A stretch of DNA of 64,000 nucleotides, from positions 79,025 through 143,024 of the forward strand of contig JBGTHM010000005.1 in the NCBI GenBank assembly GCA_041746255.1, given 5' to 3'. How positions within the stretch are numbered: the stretch's first letter is position 1; each line of letters starts with the position of its first letter. Source of the DNA: Fibrobacteria bacterium (lineage in GTDB: Bacteria; Fibrobacterota; Fibrobacteria; UBA11236). A model generated the notes under the pieces. It worked only from the letters and a program-made list of their open reading frames with translations. It made no database searches and had not been told where the DNA came from. Below, in pieces: positions 44,772 through 53,349 of the stretch. The translations under genes and the position numbers were made by a program.

Positions 44772-45266
44772 TTAATCGGGCTTGGGGGCGTCGGGGAACA
44801 GCGAGTCGATTTGATCGGCCAATTGCTGCCCATGGGTGACGTCGGGCATCATGTCTTCCATCTCGTTTTCCCTGACCATTTGCAGGGCTTCTCCCAATTT
44901 AACCTTGGCTTGACCCGCCACCATTTTGACCAGGCCGAGATTGGTACGATCATCAAATATCAGTACCATGATCACATCTTCATCGACAAGCGATATGTGA
45001 ATATTCTCCTTTTCCCCTTGATGGAACATCATGGAGAACTCCGACTCGCCGATAAGGGCCGCGATAGCCTTGGTGGACGCGAAGGTTCCCGCGGCCAAAG
45101 CGGCCAAGCTGGTCACGTCGAAACGGGGATTGAAACCGACCTGGGCGATGAGGTTTCCGTCCTTGTTGATGAGCAACACATAGCTGGAGGCGCTCTCGGT
45201 GATGAGATGGGAAAGGATCTTATTCAGCCTTTCCACGTCCTCCTTGAAGAGTACGAAATCTCCCAT
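44772..45266 (-). CDS. mglB: MglB-type Roadblock/LC7 GTPase-activating protein
   Basis: LINKDG, SLAALAAG, LIGESEF..MFHQG, FDDRTNLGLV; acidic C-terminal QIDSLF. Confidence 0.92.
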   Translation of the reverse strand: MGDFVLFKEDVERLNKILSHLITESASSYVLLINKDGNLIAQVGFNPRFDVTSLAALAAGTFASTKAIAALIGESEFSMMFHQGEKENIHISLVDEDVIMVLIFDDRTNLGLVKMVAGQAKVKLGEALQMVRENEMEDMMPDVTHGQQLADQIDSLFPDAPKPD

Positions 45267-45269
45267 CGC

Positions 45270-46991
45270 CTATTTCTCTTTTCCGAACAGCCCGCCGAAC
45301 AGGCCCTTCTTCTTTTCGGAAGGAAGGGGGATGCGGCGCGTCTTGAAATCTCCCTGGCGTTGGTCTTCGTAGGTCGACACGATGCCGCTTTGATCGGATC
45401 GCGGTGGGGGCTGAATAAAAGGAGAGGGTCGCGGCTGCTGTTCCGGCGGGGGATAATTCCCCTGCTGACCGCCGCCTGGACCGAATGGATTGGGATTGTC
45501 CTGCCGATTTTGCGGATTACCCTGCCCGGGTTGGGGACTGCCGAATGGAGACGGATTGAACCCGGCATTGTTTTGACGATCCATGGTCGGTAAGGCAGGG
45601 CCTCCCGGTCCGGCCGGGGGAAATTTTGGAGGAAACCCTCCCGGGCCAGGGCCAGGGGGTTGACCGCCGGGGGATCCAAAAGGCGAGCCCTGCGGGGCTT
45701 GCGGTGGATACGGCCGTTGCGGTGCGGAACCTCCGAAGGGATTTTGCGGTGGCGAACCAAAGCCTCCCTGTTGCGGGGGAGAACCGAATCCTCCCTGTTG
45801 CGGCTGGGACCCGAACCCGCCTTGTTGGGGTGCGGAACCGAAACCATCTTGCTGCGGTGCGGAACCGAATCCGCCTGTTTGCGGTGGAGATCCGAAACCT
45901 CCCGGGGGACCTCCCGGAGCCGGACGCGGAGGCATGCCACCCGATCCGCCTGGATTGCCAAATCCTTCTACGAAGGGGGCGACGGGAATATTCGGATTCT
46001 GCCCGGAAAACCCTCCCGGCGGAGCAGGGGGTCGATTTCCCATTCCCGGATTCAAAAACGGTGAACCGGGCTGTGGCGGCGGAGCTGCGAAGGGATTGGA
46101 GGCCGGTTGCTGGCCACCGGGGGAACCGGAATGCCCCCCTTGGAGAAAGGGATTGGGCGACTGTTGCGAAGCGGGCTTAGGGGGTGCAGGAAAGCCGCTG
46201 TTTTGGGCAAAACCACCCTGGGCGGGAGCGCCGAATCCCGCTTGTCCCGGAAAAGATTGGCCGCCTTGCTGCGGAAAACCGGATTGCGGCGGCATGGCCT
46301 GCGGAGCCGGCCTGGCCGGTGGACTTTGTGGTGCGGAGGTTGGCGCCGGACGGCTTTGTCCCGGGCGCATTGCCGGTGGACGGCGGGTTCCGCCCTGGTA
46401 TCCCGCGTACTTGGCGTTGAACCTGTCTATGACGGACTTGCCGATGGCTTTCAAAGTCGTGAAGACGCCGACACCCGTTGAAGCCACCGCTTCGAAGTAA
46501 GGCGATTGGTATTTGTTCAGAAAACTGCTGAGTTCCTCCACCGACATCACGTTAGGCAAATCACGCTTGTTGAACTGCAATACCATGGGAATAGTATCGA
46601 GAGAGTGACCGTATTCCCGAAGGTTCTCCTCAAGATTGGCGAAACTTTCCAGGTTCTCCTGCAGCTTATCGGCTTGCGAATCCGCAACGAACACCACTCC
46701 ATCCACACCGCGCAGCACCAATTTGCGTGTGGCATTGTAATAAACCTGTCCTGGTACGGTATAGAGCTGGAATTTGGTGGAAAAGCCTTTGATGGAACCC
46801 AGATCAAGGGGGAGGAAATCGAAAAACAGGGTGCGATCGGTTTCCGTTGCGAGCGATACCATTTCGCTCTTTTCCTTGTTGGGAACCTTACGGTGGATGA
46901 TCTGCAGATTGGTGGTCTTCCCGCTTAAACCGGGCCCATAATAGACAATCTTGCAGCTTATTTCTCGGGTAGCGTAATTAATCGATGCCAC
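45270..46991 (-). CDS. mglA: MglA small GTPase with long low-complexity C-terminal extension
   Basis: KIVYYGPGLSGKTTN, TETDRTLFFDFLP, YTVPGQV, NKRD; then ~370 aa P/G/Q/F-rich sequence and KKKGLFGGLFGKEK. Confidence 0.95.
   Translation of the reverse strand: MASINYATREISCKIVYYGPGLSGKTTNLQIIHRKVPNKEKSEMVSLATETDRTLFFDFLPLDLGSIKGFSTKFQLYTVPGQVYYNATRKLVLRGVDGVVFVADSQADKLQENLESFANLEENLREYGHSLDTIPMVLQFNKRDLPNVMSVEELSSFLNKYQSPYFEAVASTGVGVFTTLKAIGKSVIDRFNAKYAGYQGGTRRPPAMRPGQSRPAPTSAPQSPPARPAPQAMPPQSGFPQQGGQSFPGQAGFGAPAQGGFAQNSGFPAPPKPASQQSPNPFLQGGHSGSPGGQQPASNPFAAPPPQPGSPFLNPGMGNRPPAPPGGFSGQNPNIPVAPFVEGFGNPGGSGGMPPRPAPGGPPGGFGSPPQTGGFGSAPQQDGFGSAPQQGGFGSQPQQGGFGSPPQQGGFGSPPQNPFGGSAPQRPYPPQAPQGSPFGSPGGQPPGPGPGGFPPKFPPAGPGGPALPTMDRQNNAGFNPSPFGSPQPGQGNPQNRQDNPNPFGPGGGQQGNYPPPEQQPRPSPFIQPPPRSDQSGIVSTYEDQRQGDFKTRRIPLPSEKKKGLFGGLFGKEK
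45744..45902 (-). repeat. Six 27-bp tandem coding repeats (GGFGSxPQQ)
   Basis: Imperfect 27-nt period; DNA differences are mostly synonymous. Confidence 0.9.
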
Positions 46992-47019
46992 AGCGTTATA
47001 CCTCGTTTGCCAAATGCAA

Positions 47020-47355
47020 TTATTTGATTAGCGGCGCTACCTGCGCGATTTCGACACGTATCAATCCGGTATTAGCCTGACTTTCGGCCATTACCACCAG
47101 ATACCCCAATTCCACGGCCTGTACAAAAAACTTTCCCTCGCTCGCTTCGATCATGGTCTGGATGAGTTTCCCCGATTGGGAGGCCGCGATTATCTTATCG
47201 GCCATTTGTTGCGCCGAAACGATGAGCGCACCAATAAACTCCGAGGGAACGGGAGTTCGGAACAGGGAGACGATTTCTATCCCGTCCGCGCTTACCACGC
47301 TCGAACCCCTGATTCCCTTTATCTGATTAAGTCTTTCTAATATACTTGATATCAT
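47020..47355 (-). CDS. Roadblock/LC7 protein (MglC-like)
   Basis: GIRGSSVVSADG, G.L.Q..IE...G, ANTGLIR. Confidence 0.88.
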   Translation of the reverse strand: MISSILERLNQIKGIRGSSVVSADGIEIVSLFRTPVPSEFIGALIVSAQQMADKIIAASQSGKLIQTMIEASEGKFFVQAVELGYLVVMAESQANTGLIRVEIAQVAPLIK

Positions 47356-47361
47356 CGGATT

Positions 47362-47793
47362 TCAGCCTTTGGCATATCCCTTCGCCTGCAGAAGTTGCGC
47401 GACAGCCTGTGCGCCGCGCTCGATTCTCAACTTAAATAATTCATAGCTACCTTTTGTCCCCGCAATCATGAGAAAAAAGCGGCAGCCTGCATCCAAATTT
47501 ATGATCTGGTAGAACTTATTATCGCTAAATACGATCTGACTTTCCAGGGCTCCGAACCCTAAGTCCTTGAATTGCCTCAAATTGGCCAGATAGCGGTCTA
47601 AAAAATAGGGCGATTCAATGAGCATGCTTTCCTGCGTATTCTCTCCCATGGCAACCACCAAGCATTCCTGGCTGTACACCACGGCCCCGTCCATGCCGTT
47701 TACCAGGCTTAAATAGCCCAGACAGGTATCCAGATCGTGGGAGTCGACCATATTGGCCGCTCCCCCGGTAGCGGGTGAATTCGGATTAGACAT
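47362..47793 (-). CDS. Divergent Roadblock/LC7-like protein
   Basis: VNGMDGAVVYSQECLVV, LGFGALES, FLMIAG; alpha-beta-beta-alpha-beta-beta-beta-alpha pattern. Confidence 0.65.
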   Translation of the reverse strand: MSNPNSPATGGAANMVDSHDLDTCLGYLSLVNGMDGAVVYSQECLVVAMGENTQESMLIESPYFLDRYLANLRQFKDLGFGALESQIVFSDNKFYQIINLDAGCRFFLMIAGTKGSYELFKLRIERGAQAVAQLLQAKGYAKG

Positions 47794-48643
47794 GGGAAGA
47801 TTCCGTTCCGGGAAGGGAGGTAGCTGCCTGGGTGCGCTCACGAAAGATTTTTTCCAGTCGCACGAGCGAAAGCTGCGCTTTTTGCAGATTCTCGGATATC
47901 AAAGCAACGCCATACTCTCCCCGGAACAAGCTGAAAAGCGTGAAACGTTCGAATTGCAAGACAATCCGATGAATGCCTCCGCCTTCCAAGTCCCACACCG
48001 CGGTGGATAAATCACCGGGTAAAATTTTATCCAGAACGTCAATCAATCCGTCAAGGTTTTCAGAAATACCGGCCTTCCGCCTGACCCCCGTTTTCTGGTT
48101 CCAACCGAAAAATTCCAGCGTTCCGGCCTCGTCCAAAAGCTGTCGGTACGCTTCGGGATCCAGCGGATCTTCCGAGGAGTGGGATGGCCCCTTGTCCAAG
48201 GCGTCGACAGGATTTTCCGTAGGCGAAGCGGCCGGGGAGATTACTTCAGAAACAGCGGAAGGGGTAGCGGGGGCAGCCTCCGAACGCGAGTTTTGATACT
48301 CCTCCCAAATCACCGCCTGTAACAAAGAGAGGTAACTGGCTTGATTCGGGTCGACTCTAAGCCGATGTAACAGCTGCTCTTTGGGTTCGTCGTACCGGCC
48401 CGACCGGGTTTGCATGAAAACTTCCATGCAGAACAATACCTCTTGCATTCCGGGTTCGGTTCGGGTCGGCAAGCCCGCCAATACGTGACGCGCCAAATCG
48501 ATTTGGCCCGATTTAATCTGGGTATAGGCGTAAGCGAGAGTGCTGGAGGCCTGCAACCGGTTGCGGCAAACGGGGTTGTCATAGACGGTTTCGGCGACGG
48601 TCGCAACGCGGACCGCGGATATTCCCGGTTCCTTTACAGTCAT
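47786..48643 (-). CDS. TPR-like N-terminus, linker and divergent Roadblock-like C-terminus
   Basis: Helical repeats ending RVDPNQ; Pro/Ser/Ala linker; LEGGGIHRIVLQFE...GVALIS strand pattern. Confidence 0.6.
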   Translation of the reverse strand: MTVKEPGISAVRVATVAETVYDNPVCRNRLQASSTLAYAYTQIKSGQIDLARHVLAGLPTRTEPGMQEVLFCMEVFMQTRSGRYDEPKEQLLHRLRVDPNQASYLSLLQAVIWEEYQNSRSEAAPATPSAVSEVISPAASPTENPVDALDKGPSHSSEDPLDPEAYRQLLDEAGTLEFFGWNQKTGVRRKAGISENLDGLIDVLDKILPGDLSTAVWDLEGGGIHRIVLQFERFTLFSLFRGEYGVALISENLQKAQLSLVRLEKIFRERTQAATSLPGTESSHV

Positions 48644-49701
48644 TTTATCGTGAATTCTCCCGTCTCATACTTCTCATAGACAAAGTACCTTCCCCCGCGC
48701 TTTTTAAGTTCTTCTCTTGTCAATATTTTTTCCTTTTCCATTTCCAGCAAATCTTCGGGAAGCCTATCCCGCCGGGCCGCGAAATCGACCACGAATATTT
48801 CCACGTTTTCGGCCTGCAACCGCTGATGGATAACGGCCGAGTAATCCCCCGCTCCATCAGTGGCCAGAAAGCTCATGGCCGCGAATCGGAAAAGCAAAGT
48901 CATCAGAAAAATAAGCGCCGCGGTACCCAGTAGCAGCGCGGTTTTCTGATCTTTTTCGGATTGGACCGAAACCGGCAGTTTGGTTTCGTTTCCGGGCAGC
49001 GGCGCGTCCTCTGCCAGGATATGCCCGCTGTTCCACAACTGGGCGAGTATCTCATAGAGCCGGAAAGATCCGAAGGGGAGTTCCTTTTCCAATTTCAGCA
49101 AATTCTTTTCGCCGTCCAGAATCTCAAGCACCCATTGTTCATAGCCCGTGACTTCCGATTCGAGCGGCCTGCCCGTTGGCTTGAACACCATTTCTTCATG
49201 AGGCAGAATTTCCTTCAGCCGACCCCATTCATCAATGCGCCGCATTCCCTCCATGCAAGCGAAGTCGGTGGAAATATGCAAGGGCGCGCCCGGAGTCGCT
49301 TTTTGCTGGGCATCGAAGGCGTATTCTCCATCGGTCCAAGCGAACAGGTCGCAGACCATGTCCTCGGCGGCAGTCGAGAGCCAGGATTCCTTTTCCTCCT
49401 CGCTGAAATACCCTTTGGCCGAGAGTGTCGCCATCAAGGAACGGTTCATGCTTTCGGACAATTCACGCATTTGCAGAAAGTCCTTACGCTCAATACGCCC
49501 CGACTCCACCAACATATCCTGGATTTTGGTTTCGGGAGTTTTGTTGCCGACACGTACTCCTGTCACGTTACCTTGAGAAATAAAGATTTCAGCTTTCTCG
49601 CGGTTGCGACTCAGTCTAAGCACGCCGGACTTCCGCTGTTGCATCAGCAATTGCAGAATGTCCGGCAAGGAGAAATCGTCCAATCCTCCAGCCAGAATCA
49701 T
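48640..49701 (-). CDS. DUF4388 (PatA N-terminal-like) membrane-anchored protein
   Basis: GGLDDFSLPDILQLL..QRKSGVL, LFAWTDGEYAF, MEGMRRIDEW; one TM near the C-terminus. Confidence 0.88.
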   Translation of the reverse strand: MILAGGLDDFSLPDILQLLMQQRKSGVLRLSRNREKAEIFISQGNVTGVRVGNKTPETKIQDMLVESGRIERKDFLQMRELSESMNRSLMATLSAKGYFSEEEKESWLSTAAEDMVCDLFAWTDGEYAFDAQQKATPGAPLHISTDFACMEGMRRIDEWGRLKEILPHEEMVFKPTGRPLESEVTGYEQWVLEILDGEKNLLKLEKELPFGSFRLYEILAQLWNSGHILAEDAPLPGNETKLPVSVQSEKDQKTALLLGTAALIFLMTLLFRFAAMSFLATDGAGDYSAVIHQRLQAENVEIFVVDFAARRDRLPEDLLEMEKEKILTREELKKRGGRYFVYEKYETGEFTIK

Positions 49702-51854
49702 GCGAATACTCCTTCCTGCGTTTGCAGGCGGGGCGCCACGGAGAGCTTGCTCACTTTCAGGAGAAGCCTTAAGATAAAAAAGAGGTATAAGGCAAGCAGG
49801 GGAAGCCATAGCATCCATGCCAGCGGGCCCAGCACGAAATCAGGGTACTCCATGATGTGACTCGTCATTCCATAGAGTTGCGAGACGAGAAAACAGGTGA
49901 TAAACAGACAAAGAAAGCGGGCCCGGCCCTTTCCGGCGTAAACCTCTCCGGCCCCGGGAAAAACCGCGTTCAATCCATGGTGCAGCAACACTTCCGCAAC
50001 TTGCCCCCGGGATTTAAGATGTGAAGTAAGTTCAATGCGTAACTTGGCATCGCTTACTCCCGAGACGGTTTTGAAGCAGTCTACGCAATGCAAACCTTTG
50101 CGACACTGCCGGCACATCGTGCGGCCACAAATCTTGCATCCGAAAAGGGTACGGCCTTGCACATGCACCGAGTAATTGTGATAGCGGATAAACAAAAAGA
50201 GAAGGGATAGTCCCAAGCCCCCGTAATACAGCCATGGCGGGTAGGACGCGAGCCCGCTGCGTACCGGAGCCGGCAGAATTTCCAGGCGCTTCAATCCGAC
50301 ATAGGCGTCGCTCCAGAACATGCCGGGCCTGGGCATTACGTCCATGGTACGCCTCTGCACGGGAAGCCGGCTGAAAAGCCTGTCATTATCCTGGAGAAAA
50401 GCAGTCACCCGCAAGGCGTCAACCATACCTGCCCGGTCCAGTAGTTTCTTATGTTCCGAAGAATTGTTGGCGAATAATTCCATCTGACTCATGTTGAACC
50501 AGGTTTCCACATAACCCGCACCGGCCTGGGTGGCTGAAGAGTAGAATTCCCGTGCTGAGACGAATTCATCTTCCATCAGAGCCAGGTTCCCTTTCTGCAA
50601 GGTTACCAAAGGTTCTTCGGGAGCCAATCGTTCCGCGGCCGAAGCCCAAGCGCGCGCCCGCGAGATATCGCCTTGTTTCTTGTAATAAAGGGAACGGCCC
50701 ATGAAGAGGTAAAGACTGTCCCTTCCCATCCGAGGGGTAAAATCGGCCAACCGCGTTTCTAAATTCTTTTCACTGCCTCGGTTGAACGCGATCTGATAGA
50801 GGCGCATACCGGATTCGGAGTCAAGATGGCGGTATAACGCATGCTCGCCCGCAAGCCAGAGGGGAAGCAGCAAAAGAGCCGCCAGCACGACCTTCAAGAT
50901 CGATTTCTCCGAGAAACCGCAATGCTTCCAGAGTAAAATCACCCCCGCAAGGCTCAGCACCACGAATCCCAAGCCTATTATCCAAAGGCAGCCCACCAAT
51001 ATACCGATCACGGCATATCGGAGAGGCAGTTCCACCTGCCGGGGCAACCTTTCCGCCCAATGATGGGTGATATTGGGGTAGTACCGGATGAAAAGCAACA
51101 ATAGGCATAAAAAAAGGAAAAGGGAAAAGGCGGATCGCATCCATTGGGCTCCGTTGAGAAGCACAAAGAATTGATTGTCATAATAGGACCATAGGCCGAC
51201 GATGTCCTGAATATGGTTCCAGGCCAGACCCATATCCCAATTCCAGGGAGCGTCCCCACCCAACAACAGGGTCAGCGAAAGATAAGGAACCCAGGGGGTC
51301 ATGGGGTCCAAATCCGCCGCGAAAGCCAGACCCGCTTCAGCCTCCCCGAGCCGATCCGCCCGTATATCGTCGCGAACACGGGCCAGGACAACCTTCGCAA
51401 GTTCCGGTACGCGGGTATATCCCCGAATCGCGAGTTCCGCCAGCGTCCTTTTCCGGAAGGGGTCCGCTAAATCCGCGGATACGGTCCCGGAGAGGATGCG
51501 CGCCATTTCAAAACTTTCCGCCCAACCTAACGAGGCGAAGCCGGCCAAAGCCCGGAGGGCAGTGCGACCTTGTCCGGGATCCCATTTTTCAACGGCTAAG
51601 GCATCGGCGAATAACTGCCAGTGCGAGGGATGGGATGCGGAGACGCTACGCAAATTTTCGCGCAGAAGAGGGATTCTGTCATAATCCAACTCCCCCCGGA
51701 ACAGCGCGGAGACGTCCTTGTGATGCATCTGAAAAGCCCATCGGGATTCCAAGGCCTGATGCCAAGCCGGGATAAGTTCTCCTTCCGCATAAGCGTGCGA
51801 AGTCGGAAATACCGATAAAGCGAAAAGGCAAAGATGGATTAGGCGCATGCGCAT
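49698..51854 (-). CDS. Multi-pass TPR membrane protein with Cys-rich zinc-binding motif
   Basis: Signal peptide, TM clusters, TPR stretch, CKICGRTMCRQC...HCVDC, FPGAG. Confidence 0.75.
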   Translation of the reverse strand: MRMRLIHLCLFALSVFPTSHAYAEGELIPAWHQALESRWAFQMHHKDVSALFRGELDYDRIPLLRENLRSVSASHPSHWQLFADALAVEKWDPGQGRTALRALAGFASLGWAESFEMARILSGTVSADLADPFRKRTLAELAIRGYTRVPELAKVVLARVRDDIRADRLGEAEAGLAFAADLDPMTPWVPYLSLTLLLGGDAPWNWDMGLAWNHIQDIVGLWSYYDNQFFVLLNGAQWMRSAFSLFLFLCLLLLFIRYYPNITHHWAERLPRQVELPLRYAVIGILVGCLWIIGLGFVVLSLAGVILLWKHCGFSEKSILKVVLAALLLLPLWLAGEHALYRHLDSESGMRLYQIAFNRGSEKNLETRLADFTPRMGRDSLYLFMGRSLYYKKQGDISRARAWASAAERLAPEEPLVTLQKGNLALMEDEFVSAREFYSSATQAGAGYVETWFNMSQMELFANNSSEHKKLLDRAGMVDALRVTAFLQDNDRLFSRLPVQRRTMDVMPRPGMFWSDAYVGLKRLEILPAPVRSGLASYPPWLYYGGLGLSLLFLFIRYHNYSVHVQGRTLFGCKICGRTMCRQCRKGLHCVDCFKTVSGVSDAKLRIELTSHLKSRGQVAEVLLHHGLNAVFPGAGEVYAGKGRARFLCLFITCFLVSQLYGMTSHIMEYPDFVLGPLAWMLWLPLLALYLFFILRLLLKVSKLSVAPRLQTQEGVFA

Positions 51855-51882: not shown

Positions 51883-53259
51883 TCAGGGTTTGAGACCGTA
51901 TTTCTCTATTTTCCTATAAAGAGTGGAAATATCCAACCCTAGAATTTTGGCGGCGGTAGGCTTATGCCATTGGTTCTGACTGAGTATCCAGTGGATATAG
52001 GCCTTTTCGATTTCCTGGATATCGGGTGGAGCGCCTGCGAAGGCTATCTCTTCCCCAACGGTTTTACTCCCCCCTCCGGAAACCAGCGCCCTTGCGTCGG
52101 ATGCCACGGCTCGCGGCGCATCCATCTCGATGGCTTCAATATAACCTCCGGGGCTGTAGGCGATAGCCCGCTCCACGGTGTTCTCCAATTGGCGCACATT
52201 GCCGGGCCAATGATACGCAGCGATAGAGGCAAGGACCTCGGGGGAGAAGGATTTTAACCCTCGCGTCTTTTTTTCCAGGAAGTAGTTGGCCAGGAACACC
52301 GAGTCCTCCCCCCTTTCGGCCAAGGAGGGCATGTGAACCCGTAAAACATTCAGGCGGTAATAAAGATCTTCGCGGAAACGTCCCGCGCTTACCGCCGACT
52401 CCAAATCCACATTGGTAGCCGCCAATACCCGTACGTCGATACGAAAGGATTGGGTGCCCCCTACCGGAGTAACTTCTCTTTCTTGCAGAACCCGCAAAAG
52501 CTTGACCTGGGTATGCTGGGGCATTTCCCCTATCTCGTCCAGAAACAAGGTGCCTTTGTCGGCCACGGTAAAAAGGCCTTCTTTCTCAGCATGCGCCGAT
52601 GTGAAAGCGCCTTTCACATGTCCGAAAAGTTCCGATTCCAATAGATTCTCGGATAAGGCCCCGCAATTAACCACCACGAAAGGCTTGTCAACCCGATCCG
52701 ATTTCTGGTGGATAAGCTTGGCCACCAACTCTTTTCCCGTGCCGCTTTCCCCGGTAATCAGAACCGTGCTGTCGGAAGCGGCCAAAGTATCCGTTATCCC
52801 GCGCAACTTGATCATTTCCTCGGAATTGCCGATGAGCTCGATGGTCTTCCGGCCTTTCAGCGCTTTTTTCAGCTCGAGGTTTTCCGCTCGCAAAGTACGA
52901 TTCGAAACCGCTTTTTCTACCACCTTGGCCAAAAGAACCATGTCGAAGGGTTTGGAAAGAAAATCGTACGCCCCCAACTTGATAGCCTCGACAGCTCGTT
53001 CAATAGTCCCGAAAGCCGTCATCACCACCACCGGCAGGTCGGGAAACCGGGCTGCTAAAATCCGCACCAGGTCCAGTCCCGAATCTTGTCCCAGCGATAA
53101 ATCGACTAAGGCCAAATGGGGTTCGAAGCCGTCCAGCAGGCGCTTGGCATCCTCGAGGTTGTGCGCGGTTGACACTTCGAAGCCTTTCCGTTGGAAGAAC
53201 ACTTCCAACAGGCTGCAGAGCGAAACTTCGTCATCTACGATGAGCACTTTGGGCATCAT
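51883..53259 (-). CDS. Sigma-54 dependent response regulator (NtrC family)
   Basis: REC; GESGTGKE; ESELFGH.KGAFT; FREDLYYRLNV; WPGNVRQL; HTH. Confidence 0.96.
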   Translation of the reverse strand: MMPKVLIVDDEVSLCSLLEVFFQRKGFEVSTAHNLEDAKRLLDGFEPHLALVDLSLGQDSGLDLVRILAARFPDLPVVVMTAFGTIERAVEAIKLGAYDFLSKPFDMVLLAKVVEKAVSNRTLRAENLELKKALKGRKTIELIGNSEEMIKLRGITDTLAASDSTVLITGESGTGKELVAKLIHQKSDRVDKPFVVVNCGALSENLLESELFGHVKGAFTSAHAEKEGLFTVADKGTLFLDEIGEMPQHTQVKLLRVLQEREVTPVGGTQSFRIDVRVLAATNVDLESAVSAGRFREDLYYRLNVLRVHMPSLAERGEDSVFLANYFLEKKTRGLKSFSPEVLASIAAYHWPGNVRQLENTVERAIAYSPGGYIEAIEMDAPRAVASDARALVSGGGSKTVGEEIAFAGAPPDIQEIEKAYIHWILSQNQWHKPTAAKILGLDISTLYRKIEKYGLKP

Positions 53260-53349
53260 GCCGATTAATTCCAATCCTGCGGCCACCCCACCTGGTGGCC
53301 ATTGGGAATCGCATGTCATTTTATGATAAGGGGATAGCGGAAATGAAGC

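Follow-up and report, generated by a model that had tools for sequence, protein, structure and literature searches.

In bacteria, MglA is the textbook example of a Ras-like polarity switch, and to our knowledge mechanistic studies have all regarded it as small and soluble, with partners guiding it to the pole. The closest described systems are the group-1 MglA/MglB pairs of Myxococcus xanthus and Thermus thermophilus (structures 6h17, 5ymx, 6izw and 3t12), whose MglA chains comprise 195-203 amino acids (aa). Wuichet and Sogaard-Andersen (2014, PMC4316618) place the MglA of Fibrobacteres in group 1 and, in the main text, treat the family as single-domain, with tails unmentioned. A statement in a 2026 preprint (10.64898/2026.07.23.738820) contrasts a membrane-binding archaeal GTPase with a 'cytosolic' MglA. 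Long MglA-like proteins are listed as 'Group II: MglA2' in Table 2 of Fremgen, Burke and Hartzell (2010, PMC3000849), including a 313-aa protein of Fibrobacter succinogenes; only the length is noted in that table, which gives no composition, motif, anchor or spread and lists no MglB partner for F. succinogenes. The window analysed here is the whole stretch of 64,000 nucleotides (nt) from a Fibrobacteria bacterium (assembly GCA_041746255.1, contig JBGTHM010000005.1, positions 79,025 to 143,024 of the forward strand). It contains mglA-long (45270..46991, minus strand), a 573-aa open reading frame (ORF) with a GTG start and a stop codon at 45270-45272. The encoded protein, MglA-long, is tripartite, with a G domain, a Phe-studded linker of ~330 residues and a conserved 40-residue end-piece, and close relatives of this protein have an MglB partner. 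The best explanation, put forward with moderate confidence, is an MglA/MglB switch tethered to the membrane, in which the disordered, Phe-studded linker is under selection. Both the MglA family and its long forms were already known; the tripartite design and the Phe pattern of the clade were not found described in the literature searched, in which no account of a disordered linker, an anchor or a Phe pattern in MglA was found.

The G domain (aa 1-200; 46392..46991, minus strand) is that of a group-1 MglA and aligns end to end with the known structures. Comparison with solved structures showed that residues 1-190 align with residues 1-190 of the M. xanthus MglA chain (6h17/5ymx, E 8.4e-78) and that T. 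thermophilus MglA (3t12) matches at E 4.7e-74; after MglA, further structure matches, including Rab27B, reach just 1e-5. The Pfam matches to Ras, Arf and Gtr1 are all weak. The P-loop G19-P-G-L-S-G-K-T26 fits GxxxxGK[ST], and an alignment of 49 sequences shows no variation at G19, G21, G24, K25 and T26. D52-R53-T54 within DRTLFFD, T78-V-P-G-Q82 and N141-K-R-D144 are likewise invariant. The roles of R53 (arginine finger) and Q82 (catalytic Gln) are taken as for T. thermophilus MglA (PMC4316618), and Thr78 is the Thr-for-Asp replacement (TxxG instead of DxxG) typical of MglA (PMC3000849). The original prediction, made from the window's letters before any database search, of an intact ~200-aa MglA G domain with Arg in DRTLFFD and Gln in TVPGQ is borne out. 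The source genome has one MglA match, and mglA-long encodes the organism's sole MglA, a Ras-like polarity GTPase with an intact canonical group-1 G domain. MglA-long differs from the model chains by 373 extra residues; its size of 573 aa departs from the ~190-200 aa of single-domain MglA, a size that is a convention rather than a catalytic feature.

The tail (aa 201-573, 373 aa) contains 24% P, 20% G, 12% Q, 8% S, 8% F, 7% A and 5% N. Charged residues account for 9.1% of the tail vs. 5.0% of aa 206-528, and about half of the 34 charges of the tail fall in its last 45 residues. The linker (aa 201-534; 45390..46391, minus strand) is rich in P, G, Q, S and F, with ~5% charged, 7.7% Phe and 3.7% aliphatic residues. 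Its disorder was judged by charge-hydropathy, entropy and composition. The mean hydropathy of 0.393 is under the charge-hydropathy boundary of 0.420, as for disordered chains, and the entropy in 40-residue windows is 2.6-3.1 bits in the linker vs. 3.7-3.9 bits in the G domain. An AlphaFold2 model of the full protein, computed with the 49-sequence alignment, shows no secondary structure and a predicted local distance difference test (pLDDT) score below ~55 from residue 197 onward; with a mean pLDDT of 50.9 and parts of the G domain also poorly modelled, it is weak support for a structureless tail. By these measures, the ~330-residue linker is intrinsically disordered and almost uncharged, in agreement with the nearly uncharged P/G/Q/S/F/N tail described in the original prediction. 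Prion-like domains are Q/N-rich and proline-poor. The tail has 45% P+G and 17% Q+N, and the label 'prion-like' that had been given to it therefore does not fit.

Phe in the linker occurs in recurrent contexts at regular intervals. The tail contains four NPF motifs (at aa 280, 299, 417 and 501), four SPF motifs (at aa 310, 436, 481 and 523), 14 FG dipeptides and eight GFG tripeptides. Eight [NS]PF are present vs. 0.9 expected and eight GFG vs. 1.1 expected, numbers reached by none of 2000 shuffles. The coefficient of variation of the Phe/aromatic gaps is 0.46 vs. 0.91 after shuffling, and again none of 2000 shuffles is as low. Six repeats of 27 nt (9 aa) with the pattern [GD]GFGSxPQx occupy aa 364-417 (45741..45902, minus strand), of which five are exact GGFGS.PQ units and one is a DGFGS unit; Tandem Repeats Finder delimits them at 45744-45903 (period 27, 5.9 copies, score 141). 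Codon comparison of the 15 pairs of repeat units gave 72.5 synonymous and 37.5 non-synonymous differences, with a synonymous proportion (pS) of 0.70, which is saturated, a non-synonymous proportion (pN) of 0.12 and a ratio of 0.18. Thus, the repeat DNA differs mainly at synonymous positions, as had been claimed together with selection at the protein level, and the six repeats, four NPF and several SPF counted at that stage were recovered. The GC content in the tail climbs to 0.61-0.64 because of the Pro and Gly codons. Within the GC-rich repeat region (45224-46500), the tail is overlapped in other frames and on the plus strand by several long ORFs of 124-245 aa, which are taken as by-products of the tail composition.

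The conservation of the three parts was compared in a close set of 24 sequences, made up of MglA-long and 23 relatives, of which five came from loci and 18 were among the top 28 homologue matches. The relatives were hand-picked for a G domain at least 83% identical and an intact end; P0003, P0011, P0021, P0024, P0027, P0008 and P0013 were excluded for aberrant ends and P0019 for another end type, and P0025 is a duplicate. The median identity of the 23 relatives to MglA-long is 87% in the G domain and 65% in the last 40 aa. The identity in the linker is 33%, equal to that of a shuffled-linker control (31%, n=10). The linker length ranges from 192 to 469 aa across the close set, yet Phe stays at 6.2-9.0% and charged residues at 2.7-6.4%. 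Composition is thus kept while length varies, a point on orthologues that the original prediction had put forward for checking. Compared with composition-preserving shuffles, [NS]PF is in excess in all 24 sequences (p <= 0.04) and GFG in 14, and the aromatic gaps are more even in 23. Judged by these comparisons, the linker sequence drifts freely, with Phe held at about 7-8%, evenly spaced and in [NS]PF and GFG contexts. Even aromatic spacing was found in only 14 of 76 broad tailed representatives used as a control (those of at least 400 aa among 150). It is common in the close set and rare in the broad control, and is therefore a trait of the clade and not of any disordered tail; by this sequence criterion, the Phe-sticker linker is specific to the clade of MglA-long.

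A central island, IPV[SA]PF[VL]xxF, is found near the middle of the tail in 18 of the 24 close sequences by regular-expression (regex) match; in MglA-long it is IPVAPFVEGF at aa 335-344 (45960..45989, minus strand). Different Phe-centred units are amplified in the linkers, namely GGFG in MglA-long, SPFG eight times in L003, NPFA six times in L005 and xGFG in L006, and a genome of family f11 has QQFQ 15 times. Since each orthologue amplified a different Phe unit, the pattern looks like repeated selection on the number and spacing of Phe in the linker rather than on a particular sequence.

The end-piece has the consensus ..SGIV[ST]TYED..kddsFKTkKLPhP.EKKKGFFDGLFkKdK among the close sequences, and the version in MglA-long is SGIVSTYEDQRQGDFKTRRIPLPSEKKKGLFGGLFGKEK. 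Its first part, motif 1 (SGIVSTYED....FKTRRIPLP, aa 535-557; 45321..45389, minus strand), is conserved among the close sequences. It is probably a docking motif, and a form of it, [FY][KP]T[KR][KR][LIM]P, is kept in relatives without a hydrophobic end. The second part is the basic/hydrophobic peptide KKKGLFGGLFGKEK (aa 560-573; 45273..45314, minus strand). These last 14 residues consist of a lysine cluster followed by L-F-x-x-L-F, with basic residues flanking the extreme C-terminus (K560-K-K and K571, K573). The terminal sequence KKKGLFGGLFGK has the KG-ΦΦxxΦΦ pattern in common with the membrane-targeting peptide of Escherichia coli MinD, KGFLKRLFGG, a tag that serves as a portable membrane tether (PMC5471200). 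The ΦΦxxΦΦ spacing is formed by L564-F565-G-G-L568-F569 in MglA-long, FFDGLF in the orthologues and FLKRLF in MinD. Both peptides are extreme C-terminal, with lysines preceding G-ΦΦ-xx-ΦF (PMC5471200), which suggests that KKKGLFGGLFGKEK is probably a membrane-binding end. They differ in that MglA-long has four core glycines, a much lower hydrophobic moment and a linker of ~330 residues rather than direct attachment to the fold. A MinD comparator was sought in the source genome, where none scored above the family cut-off (six ParA/MinD-like matches, the best at 69.7 bits vs. 212.9). The original description of the tail stands for composition and repeats; it had missed the conserved last 40 residues, the MinD-like end and the central motif.

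The ends of 375 homologues were sorted by ad hoc regexes and a 19-residue hydropathy window. Basic/hydrophobic ends account for 183 of them, and 30 have a true hydrophobic C-terminal helix of the tail-anchor type. The remaining classes are acidic residues with ELRPY[IV]PK (23), a stop after [FY]PTRRMPLGP (27), a beta-rich terminal module (23), 'short' proteins under 255 aa (16) and an unclassed group, 'other' (73), in which several ends are clearly basic/hydrophobic and were missed by the regex. The short-tailed family f3, with frames of 315-360 aa, carries an acidic run and a strongly conserved terminal motif E[IV]ELRPY[IV]PK. The end classes track clades on a FastTree tree of 151 G-domain representatives, with 33 changes vs. 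80.9 after shuffling, and one group of 36 contains 29 of the hydrophobic-helix ends; this tree is quick and unrooted, with many weak forks. Among the homologues, basic/hydrophobic ends appear interchangeable with real anchors, which would provide comparative support for an anchor by analogy.

The spread of the tail was examined by a search of 121 sampled genomes of the phylum with a match threshold of E <= 1e-20. MglA is present in 105 of them, and in 100 of the 105 the best match lies within an open frame of 305-850 aa. Among the other five, the match lies at most 151 nt from a contig start in G053, G081 and G107, and the G domain is partial in G095 and G103, the latter split over two contigs. 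Frame lengths by family are 527-678 aa in the organism's own family, 315-360 aa in f3 and 516-850 aa in f11. Ten genomes of families f11 and f14 hold a second, shorter MglA-like frame of 198-295 aa with 47-66% identity; therefore, tailed and short paralogues coexist in some relatives. The bare ~195-aa MglA that the original prediction took as canonical thus holds for the model organisms and fails for Fibrobacterota, in which relatives retain the tail in 100 of 105 genomes, and long forms were in print in 2010. At least 7998 long homologues of 315-1003 aa were found, and the close matches bear Fibrobacterota-type names (Fibrobacteria, Fibrobacterota, Chitinivibrionales and Chitinispirillaceae). 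The closest match in the genome collection, L001 (95% over residues 1-220), lies on a 1816-nt contig in a bin titled 'uncultured Bifidobacteriales bacterium'; as the other close matches are of Fibrobacterota type, this contig is probably mis-binned. The best 150 representatives of 50%-identity clusters, all of 255-717 aa, were rejected as proof that short forms are rare, because M. xanthus MglA is absent from them despite scoring within range. The cluster representatives are therefore probably biased to long members, and the per-genome count is preferred. Proteins of 110-350 aa yielded 16 short matches under 255 aa, of which three are named 'partial' and four are on contigs of at most 1.5 kb; their ends are seemingly truncated or carry tails of 10-60 aa.

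A contig of 8787 nt from a second assembler, made from the probable source sample (a hot-spring metagenome), covers 45200-47050 with no differences, no joint and no indel. This comparison was made at the contig level and is not independent data. The run of the probable source sample is the only sequencing run containing all sampled words. A second sample of the same study (run X2) contains just two identical pieces of ~150 nt each, and no RNA run containing the stretch is among the runs listed. The stronger argument against an artefact is that the tail design is kept in many other assemblies.

mglA-long lies in a tight minus-strand gene cluster with the order NtrC-type regulator, 718-aa protein, PATAN protein, 285-aa protein, 159-aa protein, 111-aa protein, mglA-long and mglB. 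In comparison with the model MglA/MglB systems, an MglB homologue is likewise adjacent, the order here is mglA then mglB, and two further Roadblock-fold genes lie upstream. mglB (44772..45266, minus strand), 3 nt downstream of mglA-long, encodes a 164-aa homologue of the Roadblock/LC7 GTPase-activating proteins (Robl_LC7 3.6e-11; 6izw_B, E 1.8e-25) and scores 80.7 bits against NCBIfam NF052242, under the cut-off of 200. Directly upstream of mglA-long, a 111-aa Roadblock/LC7 protein (47020..47355, minus strand; Pfam 3.5e-08) has 73-78% identity in four family-level loci. The next gene (47362..47841, minus strand) encodes a 159-aa protein with no Pfam or NCBIfam match, and its hhalign profile-profile comparison with the 111-aa protein was not significant (probability 1.2%). 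In the structural model of the 159-aa protein (pLDDT 78.4), ~35 disordered N-terminal residues precede a Roadblock/LC7 domain, to which a further helix is added at the C-terminus, and its best Foldseek match is M. xanthus MglB (6hjm, E 6.7e-6, TMt 0.77). This protein folds as a Roadblock protein, which brings the number of Roadblock-fold proteins in the cluster to three (111, 159 and 164 aa).

Further upstream, a 285-aa protein (47786..48643, minus strand) is TPR-like as a lead only, from a language-model Atlas feature score of 0.93; it has no Pfam match and is also near Atlas clusters named Roadblock/LC7 and TPR (0.88-0.89). A DUF4388/PATAN-domain protein follows (48640..49818, minus strand; Pfam 2.2e-26); published work already notes PATAN genes next to group-1 MglA and next to MglB (PMC4316618). 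The listed ORF of the PATAN protein shares 121 nt with the upstream 718-aa ORF. Alignments with homologues begin only at about residue 36-42, and Met40 lies just past the upstream stop; therefore, the true start is probably Met40. The PATAN protein has a hydrophobic stretch around residues 300-325. The 718-aa protein (49698..51854, minus strand), conserved at the cluster head, is also TPR-like as a lead only (Atlas feature score 0.98, no Pfam match). The head of the cluster is an NtrC/PilR-type regulator with receiver, sigma-54 activator and HTH_8 domains (51883-53319, minus strand), which is kept in four related loci. Synteny analysis of eight loci by tblastn recovered the complete seven-gene series that starts with the 718-aa protein and finishes with mglB, in order, at four family-level loci, and L025 has all except the 285-aa gene. 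The core of 718-aa protein, PATAN, MglA and MglB is present at two more distant loci, and MglA-MglB alone in one f3 genome. The source genome also encodes a PilB adjoining a PilT, and three more members of the PilT family score above the cut-off. In M. xanthus, the TPR protein SgmX links MglA to the pili.

From this anatomy and context we infer membrane binding, tethering and an output of the switch as follows. Like the MinD peptide KGFLKRLFGG, the end-piece of MglA-long would attach to the cytoplasmic membrane on its inner side, and the linker would let the membrane-held G domain explore a shell of some tens of nanometres. The neighbouring MglB would switch MglA off. When MglB and the remaining Roadblock proteins encoded in the operon switch MglA between GTP and GDP, their substrate would be restricted to a two-dimensional surface, like lipid-anchored Ras/Rho in eukaryotes. 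Weak multivalent contacts, either mutual or with operon partners, would come from the Phe motifs together with both conserved short motifs. The likely output would be the polarity of type IV pili. The original prediction had offered a condensate-forming or a long-tether GTPase, and the long tether is the better fit of these two options.

Several observations weigh against this explanation. The membrane binding of the end-piece is a prediction. The hydrophobic moment of the whole peptide is 0.02 in MglA-long, compared with 0.22 in the usual orthologue form and 0.45 in the MinD tag. The end of MglA-long is glycine-rich, with four glycines within the eight-residue core, and AlphaFold2 shows no C-terminal helix, with a pLDDT of 62 for residues 561-570 in a generally poor model. 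The end is therefore named a basic/hydrophobic peptide of MinD-like pattern and not a proven amphipathic helix. The end classes are regex-based, with 73 of 375 left as 'other'. The relatives with a hydrophobic helix are 58-65% identical in the G domain and form a separate clade, and therefore the argument for an anchor is one by analogy. Whole subgroups lack a basic/hydrophobic end, namely the short-tailed f3 family with ELRPY[IV]PK and the [FY]PTRRMPLGP group; therefore, the tail must serve some purpose besides membrane anchoring. The members of the close set are kin, so their 24 tests are not independent. Finally, flagella (FliG) are also encoded in the source genome, so that pilus polarity is a likely rather than a settled output of the switch.

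The proposed membrane-tethered design has partial counterparts among known proteins. FtsZ, with a C-terminal linker and peptide, and SSB, with a G/Q/P-rich linker and acidic tip, have tips that bind proteins and folded domains that polymerise or bind DNA, respectively. MglA-long resembles them in having a folded domain, a variable low-complexity linker of kept composition and a short conserved terminal peptide; it differs in having a GTPase switch as its folded domain and a tip that resembles lipid-binding peptides. In eukaryotic Ras/Rho, a hypervariable region with a polybasic-lipid anchor holds the small GTPase on the membrane. MglA-long similarly has a variable segment and a lysine cluster at the C-terminal end of a GTPase. 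However, it has no CAAX box or lipidation signal, its linker is 15-20 times longer, and the design would be an independent invention. The uncharged low-complexity spacers and the regular Phe, including GFG, resemble FG nucleoporins, and the last peptide reads GLFG-GLFG. In contrast to FG nucleoporins, MglA-long has far more proline and is a bacterial cytoplasmic protein, and membership is not claimed; we know of no transport-receptor partner for its tail.

This likeness is central to a rather unlikely alternative, in which the tail is a cohesive, FG-nucleoporin-like or SSB-linker-like chain whose homotypic Phe-Phe contacts would gather MglA into a condensate or dense cluster, for example at the pole or the membrane, with nucleotide state and MglB tuning recruitment. 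Such a tail would be compatible with membrane anchoring. It is consistent with the even Phe spacing (23 of 24 close sequences vs. 14 of 76 broad relatives), which suits a sticker-spacer arrangement, with a linker of ~5% charged residues and 7.7% Phe with 14 FG and eight GFG, with Phe held at 6.2-9.0% over a length range of 192-469 aa, with the different Phe-centred units independently expanded in each orthologue, and with repeats under purifying selection (pN/pS 0.18). However, self-association is a proposal from sequence, and the even spacing could itself be produced by tandem-repeat growth. The same pattern would also serve heterotypic binding. The content of 24% P and 45% P+G is unlike GLFG nucleoporins or prion-like domains; a P+G-rich make-up like that of the tail falls in the range of elastomeric, non-aggregating chains. 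An unlikely extension of the cohesive chain to the membrane would make the tail a bacterial analogue of cohesive FG or NPF arrays. A membrane-binding tip would carry an uncharged Pro/Gly/Gln spacer with Phe stickers at even intervals. MglA would thereby form a condensate or brush in two dimensions along the inner membrane, probably at the pole, and GTP and MglB would switch the recruitment of clients. As a variant of this, the anchored chain would wrap the three Roadblock-fold proteins, like LAMTOR1/p18 in Ragulator.

Heterotypic binding would be the principle of a tail that acts as a docking platform, a doubtful reading in which a string of short linear motifs ([NS]PF, IPVSPFVEGF and motif 1) would bind proteins. 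The candidate partners are the Roadblock dimers of the operon, the TPR-like proteins and the pilus motor, and the last peptide would bind a protein too, like the FtsZ and SSB tips; this docking would be compatible with tethering, and its extreme form would be a Ragulator-like wrapping of Roadblock dimers. The two discrete conserved islands inside a drifting tail argue for it, as do the retention of motif 1 where relatives have no hydrophobic end and the conservation of three Roadblock-fold and two TPR-like proteins beside mglA-long. Ragulator p18 indeed wraps Roadblock heterodimers (PMC5680233). However, the partners named are candidates, the [NS]PF positions are not kept between orthologues, with linker identity equal to that of the shuffled control, and the end peptide fits a lipid-binding pattern, in place of which relatives carry hydrophobic helices. 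A functionless tail, arising from neutral low-complexity expansion or from an assembly or frameshift artefact, is very improbable. The GC content of 0.61-0.64, the slippage-prone repeats and the finding of the whole stretch only in the run of the probable source sample would fit it. Against it stand the tails in 100 of 105 phylum genomes with MglA, the at least 7998 long homologues, the conserved C-terminal module and central motif, the pN/pS of 0.18 in the repeats and the identical contig of the second assembler.

The favoured membrane-tethered switch would have consequences beyond this locus. If most MglA of whole phyla are tethered to the membrane by a long chain, the reaction-diffusion logic of front-rear polarity would differ outside the model organisms, and membrane anchoring of a small GTPase via a variable C-terminal region would have been invented in bacteria as well as in eukaryotes. 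If the condensate or wrapped-Roadblock form were true, it would represent a prokaryotic, forerunner-like way to hold a Roadblock-regulated GTPase on the membrane. A cultured relative, F. succinogenes, has a shorter tail (313 aa, PMC3000849, Table 2). The orthologues share the G domain and end-piece but differ in their Phe repeat units and, by up to two-fold, in how long the linker is, and the Phe pattern of the clade is a clean natural test case for sticker-spacer function in bacteria.

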